Positions 2,142-51,214 of a DNA stretch of 64,000 nucleotides are shown here, piece after piece. A model generated the notes under the pieces. It did no database searches and was not told where the DNA came from. It saw only the letters and a program-made list of their open reading frames with translations. Numbering within the stretch: the first letter of the stretch is position 1; the number at the start of each line of letters is the position of its first letter. The stretch lies in NCBI GenBank assembly GCA_014376695.1, contig JACMRA010000016.1:47814-111813 (forward strand), in the 5' to 3' direction. The position numbers and the translations under genes were made by a program. Origin of the DNA: Minisyncoccota bacterium. Its GTDB lineage: Bacteria; Patescibacteriota; JACMRA01.

Positions 2142-2374
2142 TGGAAAGTCCCAGCTTAAACTGGTTCTAAAAGAACAATCTGTGAAAAGTGATAGTAGAT
2201 TCCATTTCGGAAAATCCTTTCACTACTATTAACAGTGCACACTTACGCGATATTGTCAAGTAGTCTGGGTAGAGAAGTTACCTCGTCAATAACACAACCT
2301 TAACTCAAAAAGTTACCTGCACACTCAAAGTGCATATTTGACAAACATCAACAACAAATCAATGGTTATTGTGT

Positions 2375-3472
2375 ATGTATAATAAAAGCATCCCCTACAA
2401 CAATCTGCCAAAACTGCCGCCAAAGTTTGATTTTGACACAATTGAAATCCTCAAAAAACTCAACCAAGCCAACAAAGCCGTGGCTAGTTTCGATGCCAGT
2501 TTGACTACTCTTGTCAATCCAATGCTACTTGTAGCCCCGCTTACAGTTCGAGAAGCCGTAAAAAGTAGCCAAATTGAAAATATTTTTACAACGGTTAGTG
2601 AGGTTTTTGAGAGTAGTCTCTTTCCCGAAGACCAGACCCCCGCTCAAAAAGAAGCTCTATATTATAAGGACGCTTTGATTGAGGCCTATAGCTGTATAAT
2701 TAGCAAAGGAGGTCTTAGTGTCAACGATATTATTCGGGTGCAATTAATTTTGGAACCTAACAAAACTGGTATTCGCAAAATTCCCGGGACAGTAATTGGG
2801 GCTGTCAAAGCTGGTAAACTCGAAACTCTCTATACCCCGCCCGAAGGCTATGATACTATAATGGACTTGTTAAGTAATTTTGAAAAATCTTTTAACCTGC
2901 AAACAGATAGTACTGATTGGAATGAGCTAGATCCTTTGTTGCAGTTCTCTATATTACACTATCAATTCGAGTCAATCCACCCTTTTTACGACGGTAACGG
3001 CAGGACTGGAAGGATCCTGATGATTGTCTTTTTGGTTCTGAGTCGGGCAATTCGATATCCCGTCTTGTTTTTGAGCGGGTATATTCTTGAGAACAAAGCT
3101 GAGTATTATCGAATTCTCAATCAAACCACCGAAACTGGCGACTATACGGCGCTCTTAATGTATTTTTTGGATTGTATTATCGCCCAATCTCTCGAAAGCA
3201 AAAAAACCGTGGATCAGATATGGGAACATTATAATTATATAAAAACAGAGTTGCAGCAACAAAAAATTGATTCACATTCTTTTGAGATGCTTGACTACCT
3301 CTTCACAAAGCCCCTATATACCATAGGAGATATGGAAAAAAACACCGGCAAACACCGTAATACCTGTTCTAAATATCTCAACAATTTAGTTAAAATCAAC
3401 CTAATCCAAAAAAGAAAATACAAAAAAGAAAATATTTTTTTCAACCCGAAATTCCTCCAAATCCTTAGTTAA
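2375..3472 (+). CDS. Fic family protein (AMPylase-type core, auto-inhibited class)
   Basis: Core motif HPFYDGNGRTGR, upstream inhibitory-helix motif SSQIEN ([ST]xxxE[GN]), and a wHTH-like C-terminus. ATG 2375 is preferred over TTG 2369 because TTGACA 2338-2343 lies 37 nt upstream. Confidence 0.85.
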   Translation: MYNKSIPYNNLPKLPPKFDFDTIEILKKLNQANKAVASFDASLTTLVNPMLLVAPLTVREAVKSSQIENIFTTVSEVFESSLFPEDQTPAQKEALYYKDALIEAYSCIISKGGLSVNDIIRVQLILEPNKTGIRKIPGTVIGAVKAGKLETLYTPPEGYDTIMDLLSNFEKSFNLQTDSTDWNELDPLLQFSILHYQFESIHPFYDGNGRTGRILMIVFLVLSRAIRYPVLFLSGYILENKAEYYRILNQTTETGDYTALLMYFLDCIIAQSLESKKTVDQIWEHYNYIKTELQQQKIDSHSFEMLDYLFTKPLYTIGDMEKNTGKHRNTCSKYLNNLVKINLIQKRKYKKENIFFNPKFLQILS

Positions 3473-6078: not shown

Positions 6079-6543
6079 TCACCAAACTCTAACGGCAACA
6101 GGCTGAGCTTTCAGCTCTTGAGTAAATCCAATACCCATTTCATTGTACCTATTATACAAAGAGGCGGCTAGATCATCTAACTTAGAATTAAGTAACTGAC
6201 AAAATTCTGGTTTGGCAATCAATTCAACAAGATGACCGGCTCGATTGATCTGATTTGAGACACTTTCTATAGCTTGGCTAATTGTTCGAGTAATTGCCAT
6301 TGAGCCAATAAGCGCCCCATTATAGGTATTGCTAAGTATAATCCTAAATTTAGCTAATCGAGTATTTAATTCTTGATATAAGCTCAGATGTAGTTCTAAC
6401 AATTCACTTGTAATCAGCTCGCTGTAGTCTTCCCAATTATCTTCAAGAATACCGACAGCCGTAATAATTGTCTCTACTAGCAATTTTGGGTTGGTCATTG
6501 GTAAGGCCAAAATTTGGCTTTTTCTGAACCTATCTCTGGGCAT
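6079..6543 (-). CDS. hypothetical protein
   Basis: 154-aa ORF filling an otherwise empty interval; no motif recognised. Confidence 0.45.
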   Translation of the reverse strand: MPRDRFRKSQILALPMTNPKLLVETIITAVGILEDNWEDYSELITSELLELHLSLYQELNTRLAKFRIILSNTYNGALIGSMAITRTISQAIESVSNQINRAGHLVELIAKPEFCQLLNSKLDDLAASLYNRYNEMGIGFTQELKAQPVAVRVW

Positions 6544-6686
6544 ATTTGTATTTATTTAAATATTTGTTTAATTTAACTACAATATAAGTTATTAACAGTG
6601 TTTAGTCAATCAAGGCCAAAAAATTCAATTTGACACAAAGTTGATTGTAACCCAATGTTAAAACAGTTATTTTAACTAATATCACT

Positions 6687-22890: not shown

Positions 22891-23544
22891 TTGAGTGTTT
22901 GTCAAAAGCTAATCAAGGTTGAATTTAGCTGGAAGTCTAGTCAAATTGAGGGTAACACCTACTCACTTCTCGAGACAGAAGAGTTGCTAAAAGGGAGTTT
23001 AAATTTTCCTAATCATACAGCCAGGGAAACGGATATGATTCTCAATCACAAAAAAGCCTTCAATTTTGTACAGAAAAATCGCCAAATATTCTTAACTAAT
23101 TTGACGCCGTCTAATATAATAGACCTTCACGGGATTATAACAAAAAATCTAAATATCAATAAAGGTTTGCGAAAACATAGCGTGGGTATACCAGGCAGTA
23201 TGTTTAGACCGCTTGATAATCTTTTTGTCATTCAAGATTCTATGGATTTCCTATGTCAGATTATTAACAAAAACCCTAATCCTTACGCCAAGGCTTTTTT
23301 GGTTAGTTTGCTGATTGCTTATATACAGCTATTTGAAGATGGTAACAAAAGAACGGCCAGAATTCTCTGTAATGCAATTCTATATTCTAATGATTTGCCA
23401 ATGCTCCCATTTCGGTCCGTCAATATCATCGAGTATAAAAAAGCCGTGATTAGTTTTTATGATTATAACTCGATCAAGCTGTATAAAGACTTATTTTTGG
23501 AGCAGATTCGCTACTGCGTTCAGAACTACTTATCTACTTACTAA
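22891..23544 (+). CDS. Fic-fold protein with Doc-like, His-less core motif
   Basis: Has SSQIEG (inhibitory-type motif) and the core QLFEDGNKRTAR, where Fic has HxFx[DE]GNGRxxR and Doc has HxFxD[AG]NKR. The TTG start lies 10 nt after GGAGAG (22875-22880). Confidence 0.65.
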   Translation: MSVCQKLIKVEFSWKSSQIEGNTYSLLETEELLKGSLNFPNHTARETDMILNHKKAFNFVQKNRQIFLTNLTPSNIIDLHGIITKNLNINKGLRKHSVGIPGSMFRPLDNLFVIQDSMDFLCQIINKNPNPYAKAFLVSLLIAYIQLFEDGNKRTARILCNAILYSNDLPMLPFRSVNIIEYKKAVISFYDYNSIKLYKDLFLEQIRYCVQNYLSTY

Positions 23545-27989: not shown

Positions 27990-29471
27990 ATGTCTAGCAG
28001 TTCACCAAAAAATACACTCAAAAACTTTTTTGCTTTATCAGCTGTTGCTGTAATGGTAATTTCCTTATTGGCAGGCAGTCTGCCTACGCTGGCAATTGGT
28101 CAATCCCAGCTTTATCAAGACCTAAAAGCCCAACTGCAAAAAAACGGGACCGTAGAAATTATGTCCCAGTTCGGAGCCGATGACAGTCAAGCTGACCTTA
28201 AACAAAATCCTACCAAGCCCTTTGGCGACCAAGAATCCCAAATCAAATCTCGCCTAGAAAAATCCCAAAAATCTATTGCCAAAAGTACCAAGTTTAATAC
28301 TTACAGCCCCTATAGTTCAACCACTGTTACAAGCTTAAGCGAGCTTAACGAGTTATTCGAGGATAGCGATTTAGTCCCAATTAGTGAGAATCAACTAAGT
28401 CAACCAGACCTAATTAATTCGAACACGGCCATGAGTACCGCCTCTCTCTGGAATTCTACTTCACCAAAAGGGAATACCGGGCAAAACAAAATTATCGCAA
28501 TTCTTGATACTGGAGTCAACTACAACCACGAATTCCTAGTCGGTAAAAAAGCCTACGAGGCCTGCTTTAGTTTCGTTGCAGTAAGCGCTACTCAATCGTC
28601 GCTCTGCTCGGCTTATCCATACGCAAGTACGGCTAGCGGTAGTGGACTTGATTGCCTTGGAGCTAGTGGTTGCAGTCACGGAACTCACGTGGCCGGAATT
28701 GCGGCTGGCAAAGATCCCATTTCGACCACCTCGCTAATGAACGGCGTCGCTAAAGATGCCAAGATTATGGCTATCCAGGTTTTTACTCAATTTAATTCTC
28801 AGACTGATTGTGGAACAAGGCCAGCTCCCTGTATTCTTAGTTATAATACCGCCCAAATTGATGCACTCAGCTACGTCAATACCGTTGCATCTAATTTGAT
28901 TACTACCGGAAGTCTTGAGCGCGTTGCCAGTAGCAATTTGAGCCTTGGTGGTGGTAATAACACCTCAACTTGTGATACCAATCCACTCAAAACTCGGATA
29001 GATAATTTGCTCACCAACAATGTAGCCACTACAATTAGTGCGGGCAATAGCGGGCAATTTGGCGTTGCAAGTCCCGCCTGTATTAGTAGTGCCATTACCG
29101 TGGGAGCCACAGATAATTCAACAGTCCCGGTTATTGCTAGTTTTTCACAGGCTCATCCGAGCTTGGTAGATATTTTTGCTCCTGGAGTTAGTATTAATAG
29201 TAGTATCAATTCTCTAACTAATAATGAGTATCAAAATTACAGCGGAACCAGTATGTCAGCCCCTCAGGTTGCAGGTGCCTTTGCACTAATGCAAAATGCC
29301 TTTCCACTCCATACGGTTAATCAAAATCTCCAAGTCCTAAAGGATACGGGAACAAGCTTTGTTTATAATCGAAATGGTGTTAATTATACTGGCAAACGAT
29401 TAAAATTCTGCCCAGATTATATTAGATCGAAAACCGGTACTAAGCCTTGGGTTTGTGTGACCCCCGTATAA
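27990..29471 (+). CDS. secreted subtilisin-like serine protease (S8)
   Basis: Signal peptide; triad motifs AILDTGV, HGTHVAG and GTSMSAPQVAG. SD AGGAG (27977-27981) lies 8 nt upstream of the ATG. Confidence 0.9.
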   Translation: MSSSSPKNTLKNFFALSAVAVMVISLLAGSLPTLAIGQSQLYQDLKAQLQKNGTVEIMSQFGADDSQADLKQNPTKPFGDQESQIKSRLEKSQKSIAKSTKFNTYSPYSSTTVTSLSELNELFEDSDLVPISENQLSQPDLINSNTAMSTASLWNSTSPKGNTGQNKIIAILDTGVNYNHEFLVGKKAYEACFSFVAVSATQSSLCSAYPYASTASGSGLDCLGASGCSHGTHVAGIAAGKDPISTTSLMNGVAKDAKIMAIQVFTQFNSQTDCGTRPAPCILSYNTAQIDALSYVNTVASNLITTGSLERVASSNLSLGGGNNTSTCDTNPLKTRIDNLLTNNVATTISAGNSGQFGVASPACISSAITVGATDNSTVPVIASFSQAHPSLVDIFAPGVSINSSINSLTNNEYQNYSGTSMSAPQVAGAFALMQNAFPLHTVNQNLQVLKDTGTSFVYNRNGVNYTGKRLKFCPDYIRSKTGTKPWVCVTPV

Positions 29472-29502
29472 TTAAGCTAGTTGATTAATTAAGCTTTGAT
29501 TT

Positions 29503-41570: not shown

Positions 41571-42560
41571 TTAGGGCAGAAATATCTTTTGAATATTAAT
41601 TTTTTGGTCTTTTGGGAAGAACGGTTGCAGGCTCGTTAATTGCCAAAGTGCAATAATTGAATGCCAAGTCCGCCTAGCTCGCTTGCGGTTCGTGAATATC
41701 CGAAACAGCCATTCTAGGCCAGAGCGTTCTAGCCAAGCTATTGTTCGTTTTTGATTTTGGCCACTACCCAGATGATCAAAAGCCGCCCCAACGCCAACGG
41801 CCAGCCCAAAGTTGATACTACTATCCATCTTGATATTATCCACAAAAAACTCCTGTTTGCCACTAGCACCCCCAATACACACGATCACCAAATCTGGTTC
41901 CAACCGCCTAACAAACCCTCTAGCTTGGATAAGCTCAGGAAACTCGGATAACAAATTCTCTGGATTAAGAAAACTGTGCTGGCTTTGGGTAGAAGTATTT
42001 GGGGTTATTCGGCCAGTATCGGTCATTAACATACCGTCGAATGGTGCCTCCCAGACCATAATCGTACAGTCGGGAAATTGCTTATTAAGTCGTTTGGCAA
42101 CTGTCCTGTTAGATCCGATAATTGCTACTTTGGCCTTACTGATATTGGCTTGCTTGAGTAAATCATAGACAAAATCCCGTCCGAGAATGACCTCGTTTTT
42201 GGTTATGTAACTTAGGTTGACTCGACCAACAATGATCCGAAAACCTGACCAGATATTCTTGAGCAGGTTGTAATAAATACGAACCTTAATTAGATTCTCT
42301 GGGCGGTATTTTGGGTTACCTGACAATATGTAATTACTCCATTCTAGCCCTTTGCCATCGATAGCTGTAATATCAGCTTTGTTGAGAATATTTCGATAAC
42401 TGGGGTTAGAATTAGCCCGTATAACAAACTCACTATACAAAAAATACAGGACAGTTTTGGACAGCGGATCTAAAGCTCTAATCTTTTGGTTAAGACCAGC
42501 TTTGGTTATTTGGGGGAGTTCTACGCCTGCTAGAAGAGTTTTGGTTGTATTATTAGTCAT
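41571..42560 (-). CDS. WecB/TagA/CpsF-family glycosyltransferase
   Basis: Region VCIGGASGKQEFF..GVGAAFDHLGSG..IAWLERSGLEWLFRI is typical of the family. Confidence 0.75.
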   Translation of the reverse strand: MTNNTTKTLLAGVELPQITKAGLNQKIRALDPLSKTVLYFLYSEFVIRANSNPSYRNILNKADITAIDGKGLEWSNYILSGNPKYRPENLIKVRIYYNLLKNIWSGFRIIVGRVNLSYITKNEVILGRDFVYDLLKQANISKAKVAIIGSNRTVAKRLNKQFPDCTIMVWEAPFDGMLMTDTGRITPNTSTQSQHSFLNPENLLSEFPELIQARGFVRRLEPDLVIVCIGGASGKQEFFVDNIKMDSSINFGLAVGVGAAFDHLGSGQNQKRTIAWLERSGLEWLFRIFTNRKRARRTWHSIIALWQLTSLQPFFPKDQKINIQKIFLP

Positions 42561-42619
42561 TAGTTTGAAAAAACTGGCCTAGTCTTAGAAGTGCTATTAT
42601 ATAAGCGATTGCCTTATTT

Positions 42620-42839
42620 GCTTGTAAAATTATTTCTGCGAGTTACTTATGGTACGCCGCATAGGTGATTTATACTAGCTGTCGTCCCTGTAACTCTGAA
42701 TAATTTTAACACAAACGAGCAAGTCTTTTGCTTGTAAAATTATTTTGGCGAGTTACTTGTGGTTACGCCTGCATAGGTGATTGTATCAACTGTAAGCGGG
42801 ATTCTGTCTACAAATGGCGACCCTTTCGGACCGATCATC
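42620..42839. repeat. tandem 110-nt direct repeat abutting and overlapping the 3' end of rnpB
   Basis: Unit 1 (42620-42729) and unit 2 (42730-) are near-identical over about 60 nt: GCTTGTAAAATTATTT..GCGAGTTACTT.TGG..CATAGGTGATT. The junction forms the hairpin AATAATTTTA..TAAAATTATT (42699-42744). Confidence 0.7.
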
Positions 42840-43283
42840 TGGAGGCAATAATTTGTCTTCGCCCTCTACCATTCTTGAGGTTGCACCGAGCGGGGTTTGC
42901 CACACGGACAGTTGCCTGCCTTCGTGATTGGGGTCTTACTCCCAACTGTTCGCCCTTACCTTACATATTGATTGCATAGTCGTTAAACTAGCTATCGTCT
43001 CGGACATCGCCAGAATAATTTTAACACAAAAAAGCAAGTTTTTCGCTTGTAAAATTTTCTTAGTGCGTGTCTTGGGAGACGATTACATAGGGGTAAGGCG
43101 GTTTATTTTCTGTTGCACTTTTCAACCTACTCTCTATGACAGATTTCGGCTCCCTATAGTTACCTACGGCAGATTACGAGCCTGCCACCCATAAATAGCA
43201 AATGCTAAATAGTGTCCCGACTTTCCTCTCTTTTAGTAATACAAGTACCCCAAAAGAGCTATTGCCCGTTGATACTAATCACC
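42776..43283 (-). ncRNA. rnpB: RNase P RNA (bacterial type A) with enlarged P12
   Basis: The minus strand carries these conserved blocks: GAGGAAAGTCGGGAC (43227-43213), AGTGCAACAGAAAATAAACCGCC, GGTAAGGGCGAACAG, GGCAAACCCCGCTCGGTGCAAC, AGATGA and GACAGAATCCCGCTTACAG. P1 is formed by GGTGATTAGTATCAAC (43283-43268) pairing with GTTGATACAATCACC (42790-42776). Confidence 0.9.
42985..43100 (-). repeat. hairpin element occupying the P12 position of rnpB, paralogous to 42674-42790
   Basis: ACTAGCTATCGTC..GAATAATTTTAACACAAAAAAGCAAGTTTTTCGCTTGTAAAATT..CATAGG aligns with the unit downstream of the gene. The arms CGTCTC/GAGACG and AATAATTTTA/TAAAATT are self-complementary. Confidence 0.65.
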
Positions 43284-43289
43284 CCCTAA

Positions 43290-43318
43290 GTTCTATCCAA
43301 ATATATCTAATTAGTCAA
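43290..43318 (-). promoter_or_regulatory. promoter of rnpB
   Basis: Read on the minus strand: TTGACT (43318-43313), 17 nt, TAGAAC (43295-43290). The predicted TSS near 43283 coincides with the 5' strand of P1. Confidence 0.55.
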
Positions 43319-43732
43319 TTACCGACTTGCAAAAGACAGTTTTTTGCCGAGATAATCGAATACTAGATTGGTATTTTCGTTGACACAGATTTCTTGAATT
43401 AATCGAGAACCTATTATTGGCTGCGACTCGCTCGGCATATAAATTGCTTCAACGCCGAAAGAGTAGTCTTGAGTCAAAGTCTCAAAAATCACGTATATAT
43501 CGCATACCACGGCCATTACTTTTTGGTTATTCCCTATATTTAATGCTATTTTTTTGGTAAAGGTTGGCTTGAGAAAATTGACAATTTCCCTATTAATAAC
43601 TATATAACCGTCAAAACCAGTATCGAGCAAAGCCGTGCCTCTATAACCAATCGTTTCGCCGTCTCTGGCCAAAGCTAAGTTGAATTGAGGTTTTGTCATC
43701 TGGGTTTGTTTCTGGTATAAGATCTCGGTCAT
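43319..43732 (-). CDS. retropepsin-like clan AA aspartic protease ('DTGF' type)
   Basis: 137 aa with motif ALLDTGFDGYIVIN. Paralog of 30736..31149. Confidence 0.65.
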   Translation of the reverse strand: MTEILYQKQTQMTKPQFNLALARDGETIGYRGTALLDTGFDGYIVINREIVNFLKPTFTKKIALNIGNNQKVMAVVCDIYVIFETLTQDYSFGVEAIYMPSESQPIIGSRLIQEICVNENTNLVFDYLGKKLSFASR

Positions 43733-43997
43733 AAATATTGTCTTGTTCGGCTTGGGTAAGAGCTATGCTATTGGGTAATTTTTTTAGTTGGACAATTTTC
43801 ATTGGTTTTTTTATTGAGGTATCTTTGGATTGGATTATCAGCTCTTCAAGTTTACCCTCCAAAAAACCCGACAGGCTTATTCCTTTTTTTTTGAGAATTC
43901 GCATCGAGCTTTCTTTGATATCAGAATATAGCAGTATGTGAGTTGGGGTTTTTACTTTTTTTGGGCTTTGGGAATTGGCTACTAAAGTCATACACAT
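43641..43997 (-). CDS. small RHH/CopG-like protein upstream of the DTGF protease
   Basis: KTPTHILLYSDIKESSMRILKKKGISLSGFLEGKLEELI resembles a ribbon-helix-helix. ATG 43997 or 43991 is preferred over track TTG 44075 because TTGACA (44047-44042) lies inside the longer ORF. The 3' end overlaps the protease gene by 92 nt. Confidence 0.45.
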   Translation of the reverse strand: MCMTLVANSQSPKKVKTPTHILLYSDIKESSMRILKKKGISLSGFLEGKLEELIIQSKDTSIKKPMKIVQLKKLPNSIALTQAEQDNIYDRDLIPETNPDDKTSIQLSFGQRRRNDWL

Positions 43998-44115
43998 ATA
44001 TTTAAATGTTATGGCTATATAATTATCGGTTTTTAATTCTTTGTCAATTGGGAGTATATACTTTAGCCTAGACAATGTGCGTAATTTAGAATACTATGTA
44101 ATAACAAAATACGTT

Positions 44116-49190: not shown

Positions 49191-51214
49191 CTAAAACTTA
49201 TCTATATTGTTAAGCCTGCTTATAATTTGACGGTAATTCACTTTCTTAAAATATTGGTTTATAAGGTTTTTTACTACTACATTATTTCTATCAATGTCAT
49301 CATTTATTACAAAGTAAGTTAATAATAACTCTCTTAGATTGCGATAATCCAACGCCGTATTCTCCATCCAATGTTGATCATTTTCAAAGTAAAAGACAAT
49401 TGAAAATAGATTTAGCAACGGCGCTAATTCAAACTTTTCTGAACTTATAATATTATCTTTAAAGTTAAATAATGTATGATAGATGCCAAGCAATAGAATT
49501 GAATTTATTTTCCAGATACCTGAATTCAAGAGGTTGTAAATATTTACAGTTAAATTATCACCATTACGATATGGTATTACAACACTTCTTTTCCCATCTA
49601 ATGAATCGGCGAATATCTCATCATTATACTCCTCACTCAAATACTTTATAAAGCGTTGATATAACCTGTAAATTTTATTTTTAGACAGTAGAGTTAATTC
49701 AGGCGATTTAGTTAATTGGTATAATTTTTGAATAAAAACTGATGTATTAAATTTATCGTTCAACTCTTTGCTAAAAATTAAGCAAAATACTGAATAACCT
49801 GTCTGTTCTTTCTCTATGATTTCCTGATAATATTTTTGATACAGTTTATTGCACTGATCTGCAAATTCATCGTTACGGAAGATCGAATCTAAATACTTCG
49901 TAACTTGGGAATTTAACTTTGCAGTTGGGCCTCTTCCCTCGTAACTATCTACTCCATAAACTCCACTAACTAGGGCCGAACTCTGCTTAAGAATAGGAAA
50001 ATACTCAAAGCAGGTCGTCTGCTTAACATGTTTAAAATCTAAATTGACTACAAAAACCAAATTCTGAAAATTACAAACAAAATTAAGCGAGTTAAAAAGA
50101 TTATAAACCTGCTTGGGGTTAAGCCTGTCAACTTCGTCAACGATGATTATTACTGGTTTATCGAACAGGTCAAGCTTTTTGGAGATTTTGTCTTTTAGTT
50201 CTGATGTACTATCAGGGCCGCCTAGAAATGGGAAGAGCTTGAGCCAGTCAAAGAAGTTAACCTTTTCTTTGAGAGTATTGAAATATTGAGTAGTAATCTC
50301 ATCGGTCAAAATATTATTTTGGTGTAATATAAATCCTATTTCATCAAGCAAGGCCTTGTTAAAGTTATCTGTATTCTGCACTTGAGTTGTGTTAAACTTG
50401 TAAATATATGGAGATACTAAATCAAATCTTGGGATTGTTTTAGACTTGGGATTGTTAAAATATTGATATTTAGAATTGTATTGGACACTACGAGCGTCCA
50501 TTAACCGCACGTCATAGAGTAGGTTAGTAATCGAGGATTTACCAGATCCCTGCTCTCCATCATAAAAAATAACTAGACTTTCCCGCTCTAGCCTCGCCTT
50601 ATTTTTTGCAATTGCCTTAACTAAATTGCTGTTAAATTTGTCACATTCTCCCACATACGAATTTATAAAATCATTCTCGAGCTTGTCGATAGTTGAACTA
50701 TTCACCCAATCTAAGTCAAGCGCAAAGTTGGGTCTGAGCCATCCGGATTTTTTGGTCGAGTTAATATATTGGGAAAAATTGTTTGAATCTTTATTCGCAG
50801 GAAGCAAAAGCGACTAAAAAACCAATTAAGAATTCTTGTAAATTGCCCCAACTTGTAGCGAACTGGCTTAATTTGACCTTTGACTTCTTTGTACCACCCC
50901 TCCATCCAATCGCGCGTGGGCTTGAACAAGAAAACCAGAAAGAAAGATATTAAAGAAAAGCTCAGCCCAACAATCAGAATAAATAGCCATTCACTCCCAC
51001 CAAATAAACCAATCAAAATTGGCTCTCTGGCAAATAACTCTAGGCACCAAATTCTAATCCAAAACAAAGGATTAAGCTTAAGATAGTTTATACTGGAACC
51101 AATGCCTAGCCAATCAGTGAATTCAACGACTATGTAAATCAGACTTGCAAAACCAACAAAATACAAATATCTAGTCAAAAACCAATCCCAGAATCTAGCA
51201 AGCTTCTTTTTCAT
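49191..51214 (-). pseudogene. KAP-family P-loop NTPase with N-terminal TM domain, frameshifted
   Basis: Walker A GEQGSGKSS and Walker B VIIIVDEVDRLNPKQV. The TM domain (track ORF 50711..51214) and the NTPase (49191..50807) are in frames offset by -1. Alignment to copy 1 places the shift near the T4 run (plus-strand 50806-50809). Confidence 0.6.

Follow-up and report, generated by a model that had tools for sequence, protein, structure and literature searches.

We analysed a stretch of 64,000 nucleotides (nt) from a Minisyncoccota bacterium (GTDB lineage Bacteria; Patescibacteriota; JACMRA01; assembly GCA_014376695.1, contig JACMRA010000016.1, positions 47,814 to 111,813 of the forward strand), hereafter the window, in which the gene for the RNA component of RNase P (rnpB) has an expanded helix P12. 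The extra ~105 nt in P12 probably belong to a dispersed repeat of this Patescibacteria species, of which they would be one copy; the repeat is small, non-coding and hairpin-forming (core CCTATG...AGCTAGTA), and its copies would exchange sequence by gene conversion or recombination. Related copies lie directly 3' of rnpB and, in other assemblies, behind ruvA; their hairpin covaries, the copy in P12 occurs as two alleles, and the number of units 3' of the gene differs between strains. The original prediction for this locus, made from the sequence of the window, had been a P12 derived from a repeat of which paralogous copies follow the gene in tandem on its 3' side, and it holds in the alignment to the Rfam model RF00010, in the comparison of the window with itself and in the alignment of strains. 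Positions below are those of the window unless a contig is named.

The gene was called with cmscan, in which RF00010 matched the minus strand from 43277 to 42777 over the full length of the model (1-367) with 107.7 bits against a gathering cutoff of 100 (E = 5e-32). Reading the sequence beyond this match extends P1 to 15 bp with one bulge (GGUGAUU(A)GUAUCAAC / GUUGAUACAAUCACC), and together the two confirm a type-A gene of 508 nt with a 15-bp P1, as had been proposed. The features of the RNA are:

42776-43283, minus strand: rnpB, RNase P RNA of class A, 508 nt including the extended 15-bp P1 (RF00010 part, 42777-43277)
42959-43098, minus strand: the whole of P12, 140 nt, with a helix CCUUAC/GUAAGG at its base, followed by the repeat hairpin and, on the 3' side, by another small hairpin
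42818-42833, minus strand: an extra, P19-like hairpin (CGGUCC-GAAA-GGGUCG) between the 3' strand of P2 and the 3' strand of P4, a 20-nt insertion relative to the model

The RF00010 alignment puts the ~105 inserted nt in the P12 hairpin of the model, between ACCGCC-UUACCCC and GGUAAGGG, which is where the excess sequence had been expected. The conserved blocks GAGGAAAGUCGGGAC, ACAGAAUCCCGCUUA, ACAGAAAAUAAACCGCC and GGUAAGGGCGAA (P4 strands, J11/12 and J12/13) are aligned to the model and are invariant across 4-8 rnpB orthologues, which we found in the contigs L019, L020, L021 and L050-L053. The RNA has less than the full set of type-A helices, the model positions for P16/P17 (34 nt) and for P18 (24 nt) being deleted. 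Two plus-strand open reading frames (ORFs; 42728-42979 and 42928-43194) run antisense inside rnpB. The rnpB genes of the clade as a group (window 42776-43283, minus strand; L019 368-829; L020 477-867; L021 2121-2481) have no P16/P17 and hence no P6 pseudoknot, P18 is missing from its usual place in all four, and P15 is a plain hairpin with GGU in its loop. The P19-like hairpin between P2 and P4 is variable, being present in the window (with a GAAA loop), L019 and L020 and absent from L021, and the RF00010 scores of the clade range from 90 to 128 bits, straddling the cutoff of 100. In passages of a study of RNase P RNAs from the candidate phyla radiation (CPR; Lui, Nielsen and Arkin 2021, PMC8172020), such RNAs score near or below the Rfam thresholds and can carry 'large extensions of helices', and the loss of P16/P17 is described as not unusual, as is that of P18 in the legend of figure S6. 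The rnpB of the window resembles these RNAs in its near-cutoff score and in lacking P16, P17 and P18; the passages searched in that study mention no extension traced to a dispersed repeat, no 3' paralogues and no allelic dimorphism.

When the window was searched against itself, the P12 segment (43091-42983) aligned with the sequence directly downstream of the gene (42777-42670) at 74.5% identity over 110 nt (E ~1e-13), in line with the similarity that had been noticed between them, and the 18-mer GAATAATTTTAACACAAA occurred exactly twice against 0.23 expected occurrences. The copies and their junction are:

42986-43091, minus strand: the repeat copy inside P12 (allele A), 106 nt, core CCTATG...AGCTAGTT (nhmmer E = 1e-28; fold z = -4.3)
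42673-42777, minus strand: D1, a full copy directly 3' of rnpB (nhmmer E = 5e-31); the unit with its tail is 42671-42782
42617-42665, minus strand: D2, a 5' half copy (nhmmer E = 2.5e-6), whose homology stops at ...ACAAGCAAA, after which unique sequence follows upstream of wecG
42771-42782, minus strand: AAUCACCUAUGC at the 3' end of rnpB, 12 nt that are repeated exactly and in direct orientation at 42659-42670, the D1/D2 junction

The first bases of D1 overlap the 3' strand of P1. With a period of 112 nt (42782-42671) and with D2 (42670-42617) 91% identical to 42782-42727 over 56 nt, the array amounts to 1.5 units. Thus the tandem arrangement that had been predicted stands but its extent does not, since the proposed 110-nt duplication (42620-42729 and 42730-42839) is a 112-nt unit present 1.5 times, with homology that stops short of 42839. 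Likewise, the last ~12 nt of rnpB are indeed recopied exactly (GCATAGGTGATT at 42771-42782 and 42659-42670), but the repeat looks like an ordinary junction between units. A tail AAUCAC followed by a restart CUAUGC is seen at the tandem junctions, at the 3' end of rnpB (overlapping the 3' strand of P1) and inside P12, both in allele A and in L019; because it also occurs within P12, the recopied end of the gene need not reflect a duplication that began there. Given this recurrence at all three kinds of site, the boundary of the element itself appears ambiguous. No other copy resembling the repeat unit occurs in the 64-kb window, D1 and D2 have no Rfam match even at a permissive threshold, and the RNA strand of the units contains no site like an intrinsic terminator (scanned over 42300-43600) or a sigma-70 promoter, so that a 3' terminator, one of the functions suggested for the units at the outset, is not supported. 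Tandem Repeats Finder reported nothing in 42600-43300, the P12 insert being one long hairpin without short periodicity.

All copies of the repeat fold into the same long hairpin, with z-scores against shuffled sequences of -2.1 (D1), -3.3, -3.5 and down to -5.0 (-4.3 for the P12 copy), which agrees with the separate hairpins predicted for the P12 copy and for the unit downstream. A consensus of seven distinct copies has 26 pairs, with 96.4% of cells paired, and double-sided changes are found at 9 pairs, compared with 2.9±1.2 in column shuffles (none of 500 reached 9) and with at most 2 when the partners were slid by 1-3 columns. The compensatory pattern first suspected from two copies is thereby confirmed on seven. 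Examples are the outermost stem of allele B, in which G-C is changed to A-U (CCUAUA.../...AGUUAG), three consecutive double changes between the window and L019, and a basal pair of P12 that is A-U in the window and G-C in L051 and L053. The ends of the element, CCUAUGY and RGCUAG, pair in 7 of the 7 copies, i.e. the whole element is an imperfect inverted repeat with terminal inverted repeats. The covariation does not tell selection on RNA from selection on single-stranded DNA or from repair within a palindrome.

Outside the rnpB locus, a single copy of the repeat was found directly after the stop codon of ruvA and before a pseudouridine synthase gene in three independent ENA assemblies, which were reached by looking up the ruvA-like protein of contig L054:

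L056 9127-9231, L057 1418-1522 and L058 842-946: the ruvA-locus copy (nhmmer E = 2e-29), CCTATGTAATCGATCC...GGATCGATAGCTAGTA, ~105 nt, 87% identical to D1
42702-42756, minus strand: the longest stretch, 55 nt, over which D1 and the ruvA-locus copy match exactly

There is indirect evidence for a ruvA-type copy in the sample of the window as well (SRR9661224), whose Logan contigs end at 42731 and 42727. The Logan assembly uses k = 31, and with this k a contig is predicted to stop 30 nt into a shared stretch, which is where these two contigs end within the 55-nt exact match. The short non-coding element is thus present at several unrelated loci (P12, the spacer between rnpB and wecG, and the 3' end of ruvA), and all copies at these three known loci share one orientation relative to transcription. 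Among the origins considered at first, that of a mobile or dispersed hairpin (similar to miniature inverted-repeat transposable elements, MITEs, or REP sequences) gains direct support from the copy at the 3' end of ruvA and from the strain-variable copy number in the spacer. In contig L054 (GCA_043787155.1, JAYVVK010000074.1, 362-1337) a ruvA-like gene is joined to wecG via 2.5 repeat units and without rnpB; this join is either a chimera across the repeat or a real rearrangement there.

Conspecific strains (90-95% identical to the window) were found via the small protein encoded upstream of rnpB and via members of the WecG cluster. Across four strains the rnpB core is identical except for three scattered single-base differences, and the P12 copy falls into two alleles: allele A in the window, L051 and also L053, and allele B in L050 and L052, which are identical to each other in it. 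The two alleles are 77% identical, although their surroundings are nearly the same: over 3492 flanking positions, 6 differences (99.83% identity) separate L050, with allele B, from L051, with allele A, and each of these two strains shares ~95% identity with the window and with L053. Allele B shares 91% identity with D1 of the window and 86% with the ruvA-locus copy; the copies outside P12 and allele B form a group at 85-92% identity, with allele A as an outlier at 72-77%. Allele A, present in all three strain lineages, is therefore the older resident, and its replacement by B took place recently, within part of one of them. Allele B cannot be a chimera made by an assembler, since it has junction and internal bases unique to it and since two samples, for which different assembly programs were used, agree in its sequence. 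Judging from these alignments, the simplest explanation would be a replacement of the allele by gene conversion or recombination from a B-like copy, for which the unit in the 3' flank, 300 nt away, is the obvious candidate donor. The array 3' of the gene varies too, with 1.5 units in the spacer of the window and 0.5 in L053. The half unit that ends at the end point of D2 is the sole unit 3' of rnpB in L053, is also seen in L054 and L055, and in L053 looks like a fusion between the 5' half of D1 (as in the window) and the end of D2, a form that is expected from unequal recombination between tandem units.

Three more distant relatives, in which the order rnpB-wecG is conserved, place the P12 copy in time:

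L019: WecG 77% identical to that of the window; rnpB 462 nt with a P12 insert of ~90 nt; gap to wecG 23 nt, with no unit 3' of rnpB
L020: WecG 59% identical; rnpB 391 nt with a short P12; gap ~20 nt
L021: WecG 54% identical; rnpB 361 nt with a short P12; gap ~20 nt

P12 measures only ~20-35 nt in the sister lineages L020 and L021. The insert of L019 keeps both ends of the repeat (CCUAUGC... and ...CAGCUAGUAUAAUCAC) without the apical 47 nt, and since it shares both ends, the P12 copy dates to the common ancestor of L019 and the species of the window.

We suggest the following history. The P12 copy would have entered in this common ancestor and would have been tolerated, nearly neutral for RNase P, because the distal end of P12 is peripheral and the pairing of the arm was kept by compensatory changes. 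P12 is described as 'sometimes dispensable (e.g. in cyanobacteria)' (PMC2858038), and that the two sister lineages manage with a P12 of ~20-35 nt can be counted in favour of such tolerance. The copies might then exchange sequence by gene conversion or recombination, which would homogenise those outside P12 (85-92% identical); in one strain lineage the resident allele A would recently have been overwritten by the D1-like allele B, and unequal recombination between tandem units would alter their number 3' of rnpB. At the tip of P12, in the rnpB trailer and at the ruvA 3' end, the element seems to occupy spots that are transcribed but non-essential. The units that follow rnpB may be part of a co-transcribed trailer that is removed during 3' maturation, as suggested by the wecG genes of relatives, which start ~20-25 nt after rnpB with no terminator between. 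In the window this distance is lengthened by D1 and D2:

41571-42560, minus strand: gene for a wecG-family glycosyltransferase, downstream of rnpB on the same strand and starting 216 nt after it

Since wecG of the relatives lies on the same strand only ~20-25 nt past rnpB, the ribozyme and the glycosyltransferase mRNA are probably made from one transcript and separated by processing. Source names attached to relatives of the window's WecG-family protein, together with the gene content, place the uncultured organism among the Patescibacteria (CPR).

Several observations weigh against a dispersed repeat that exchanges sequence between its copies. Only three loci are known; 72 kb of sequence from the strain of the window and ~110 kb from related loci contain no further copy, and scans of genome, metagenome and viral collections with exact patterns yielded chance singletons only. 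In the genome collection the apical hairpin pattern gave 17 unrelated singletons, about the level expected by chance, the species of the window being evidently absent from the representatives; one singleton near a contig end (L010) was rejected as a copy, as it lies inside a coding gene and has no RNase P match. The metagenome collection gave 24 singletons with the repeat pattern, none of which extended past the pattern, and nothing with a clade-specific rnpB pattern; L020 and L021 carry the latter, so their samples are not in that collection. The viral collection gave nothing with the repeat pattern. No target-site duplication or fixed insertion target is consistent across the loci: D1 is flanked on both sides by AATCACC, neither the ruvA copy nor P12 allele B has flanks that match, and AAUCAC plus CUAUGC looks like a junction between units. 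No Pfam domain of a transposase was found in the window or in the fetched loci, and none of RAYT in the window; the repeat is thus no more than putatively mobile and may have spread by recombination alone. The donor of allele B escapes observation, as the contigs L050 and L052 stop at, or at most 10 nt from, the position where the 3' unit would begin, a stop that is expected if that unit is nearly identical to their P12 copy. Finally, the P12 copy of L019 is 58% identical to allele A, which sits at the orthologous site, but 70-72% identical to the B-like copies; a simple history with a single insertion does not predict this, and the pattern suggests repeated conversion or a fast evolution of allele A.

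Among the alternatives, an artefact of short-read assembly, by which the units or the P12 insert were collapsed, expanded or joined into a chimera, is extremely unlikely. Contigs of several assemblies do end at the repeat (L052, L055 and L056 at or inside a copy, L050 at most 10 nt from the start of D1), the L054 contig, from a metagenome-assembled genome, looks chimeric, and no single Logan contig covers the join at 42727-42731. On either side of that join, however, two Logan contigs of SRR9661224 are identical to the window save for one 1-nt gap in the 11.2-kb alignment of L001; one of them runs through the P12 insert and ends halfway into D1, and the remainder of D1 lies in the other, together with the D1/D2 junction (internal to L001) and D2. 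The P12 insert is internal to contigs of six assemblies from different samples; it or its variants are so in L019, L050, L051, L052 and L053, all from other samples than the window, and in L053 a single contig of 31.8 kb covers the locus completely, including wecG and the gene upstream. The junction sequences of allele B are moreover unique and identical in two samples. An assembly duplication, which would have undone the original prediction, is thus contradicted both by the Logan contigs, which match the window, and by the five assemblies from other samples, which share its architecture or variants. A purely local event is also highly unlikely: the P12 expansion would have been copied once to the 3' flank by template switching at a CCUAUG microhomology and then amplified in tandem, with no dispersed family involved. 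It would agree with the lack of a copy elsewhere in the 64-kb window, with the distance of only 300 nt between P12 and D1, and with a precedent in Escherichia coli, where parts of rnpB are recopied in tandem 3' of the gene (113 bp, 3.5 times). The copy after ruvA in three independent conspecific assemblies, 87% identical to D1, led us to reject a model of local duplication alone, and the contig breaks in the sample of the window fit a second copy to the base.

That the repeat is a functional RNA module and not selfish DNA is unlikely but deserves more weight. Behind ruvA and rnpB it might stabilise the 3' end or mark it for processing, or it might be bound by a protein that docks on the P12 arm too, with the silent 3' copies as donors for a switch of that arm. 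Consistent with this, the hairpin is preserved by covariation wherever the repeat occurs, the copies observed all point the same way relative to transcription, D1 has only 3 private changes in a three-way comparison (against 10 and 13), and two sharply different P12 alleles coexist in near-identical strains. However, three loci are too few for the bias in orientation to be significant, palindromic DNA repeats that have no function as RNA acquire compensatory changes as well, D1 and D2 have neither a terminator-like U tract nor an Rfam match, the sister lineages do well with a short P12, and L053 has just half a unit 3' of rnpB. In a more specific and very unlikely variant, offered by analogy with variation of the pilE/pilS type but here in a catalytic RNA, the 3' copies of such a module could act as silent donor cassettes that switch the exposed P12 arm by gene conversion, perhaps under pressure from a phage, a toxin or a factor of the host or partner of this episymbiont lineage. 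A diversity-generating retroelement was considered and rejected, as the mismatches between P12 and D1 affect all bases and are not adenine-specific, and no reverse transcriptase is among the Pfam hits of the window.

For the dispersed hairpin repeat that we favour, the known case closest in kind is that of the STRR repeats within helix P12 of the RNase P RNA of heterocyst-forming cyanobacteria, reportedly described by Vioque in 1997. STRRs are short heptanucleotide tandem repeats. Both are dispersed repeat families that occupy the distal part of P12 of a type-A RNA and lengthen it while the conserved core is untouched; they differ in that the insert of the window is a single imperfect hairpin of ~105 nt without tandem heptamers, and in that it has paralogues right after the gene and two divergent alleles within one species. 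In E. coli K-12, as we re-derived from the sequence, 113-bp units start in the last 23 nt of rnpB and are present 3.5 times, each combining a terminator with a pseudo-copy of the gene's last ~50 nt; their first description is said to be that of Reed and Altman in 1983. The unit lengths are nearly equal (113 and 112 nt), and both arrays start at the 3' end of rnpB and recopy the last nucleotides of the gene. The E. coli units, however, have terminators and are not known in P12 or at other loci, whereas the units of the window have no terminator, only 7-12 nt of the gene end recur in them, and the remainder is matched by P12 and by the copy at the ruvA locus. In bacteria, MITEs and intergenic hairpin repeats (Correia/NEMIS, RUP, ERIC, BOX) are non-coding, ~100 bp long, often located just after stop codons and co-transcribed. 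The present element shares with them its size, its non-coding nature, the long imperfect inverted repeat, the intergenic copies and the contig breaks, but a fixed target-site duplication and a partner transposase, both of which define MITEs, were not found in the window and the fetched loci. It is best described as working like a MITE or an intergenic hairpin repeat, without being filed as a MITE. Among palindromic elements inside structured RNAs, those of Rickettsia number 526 copies in R. bellii, 53 of them inside genes that code for proteins and a single one in the gene for transfer-messenger RNA (tmRNA; PMC1458961). They resemble our repeat, by description, in being palindromic, dispersed, ~100-150 bp long, devoid of a transposase of their own and present both in intergenic DNA and inside the gene of an essential structured RNA; they differ in phylum, in their high copy number (against three loci here) and in the host RNA, which is RNase P RNA in our case. 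A literature search for MITEs of Patescibacteria, or for one within an RNase P RNA, found nothing.

Repeats in P12 of cyanobacteria and a palindromic element in the tmRNA gene of Rickettsia being known already, the added interest is the dimorphism of a ribozyme arm within one species. If our reading is correct, it is a clear case of a dispersed hairpin repeat inside the essential ribozyme of a CPR bacterium with a reduced genome, in which the insert was replaced wholesale (alleles 77% identical, flanks 99.8%) while the catalytic core stayed invariant, and it would document concerted evolution between a functional RNA arm and its intergenic paralogues. It would also explain near-threshold Rfam scores of CPR rnpB genes as well as assembly breaks at rnpB, and the natural variants of P12 (short, allele A, allele B and deleted) could be used to test what the P12 arm contributes.

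Around rnpB, the downstream neighbourhood (wecG and an ORF of 138 amino acids) is conserved relative to L019 and the upstream one is not. The spacers between rnpB and wecG in the relatives are L019 829-853, L020 867-889 and L021 2481-2502, with both genes on the same strand. Upstream of rnpB in the window are two ORFs on the minus strand (43319-43732 and 43641-44075, the second called with 118 amino acids) that overlap in every assembly. The ORF next to rnpB has no Pfam match and homologues only in conspecific strains (called with 126 amino acids, 97% identical), and the coding status of both is uncertain; in L019 a gene for a YoeB toxin (25-306) lies just upstream of rnpB, where the window has the small ORF. 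Elsewhere, the window contains two genes of the Fic/DOC family and one for a KAP-family P-loop NTPase (2369-3472 and 22891-23544, plus strand; 49191-50807, minus strand), which are defence- or toxin-like genes in a small CPR genome, and the region of the KAP NTPase is absent or different in the strains L050 and L053. Short tandem repeats with periods of 14-21 and 2-2.3 copies, unrelated to the hairpin repeat, were reported by Tandem Repeats Finder at 719-770, 3403-3434, 6542-6576 and 29469-29501.

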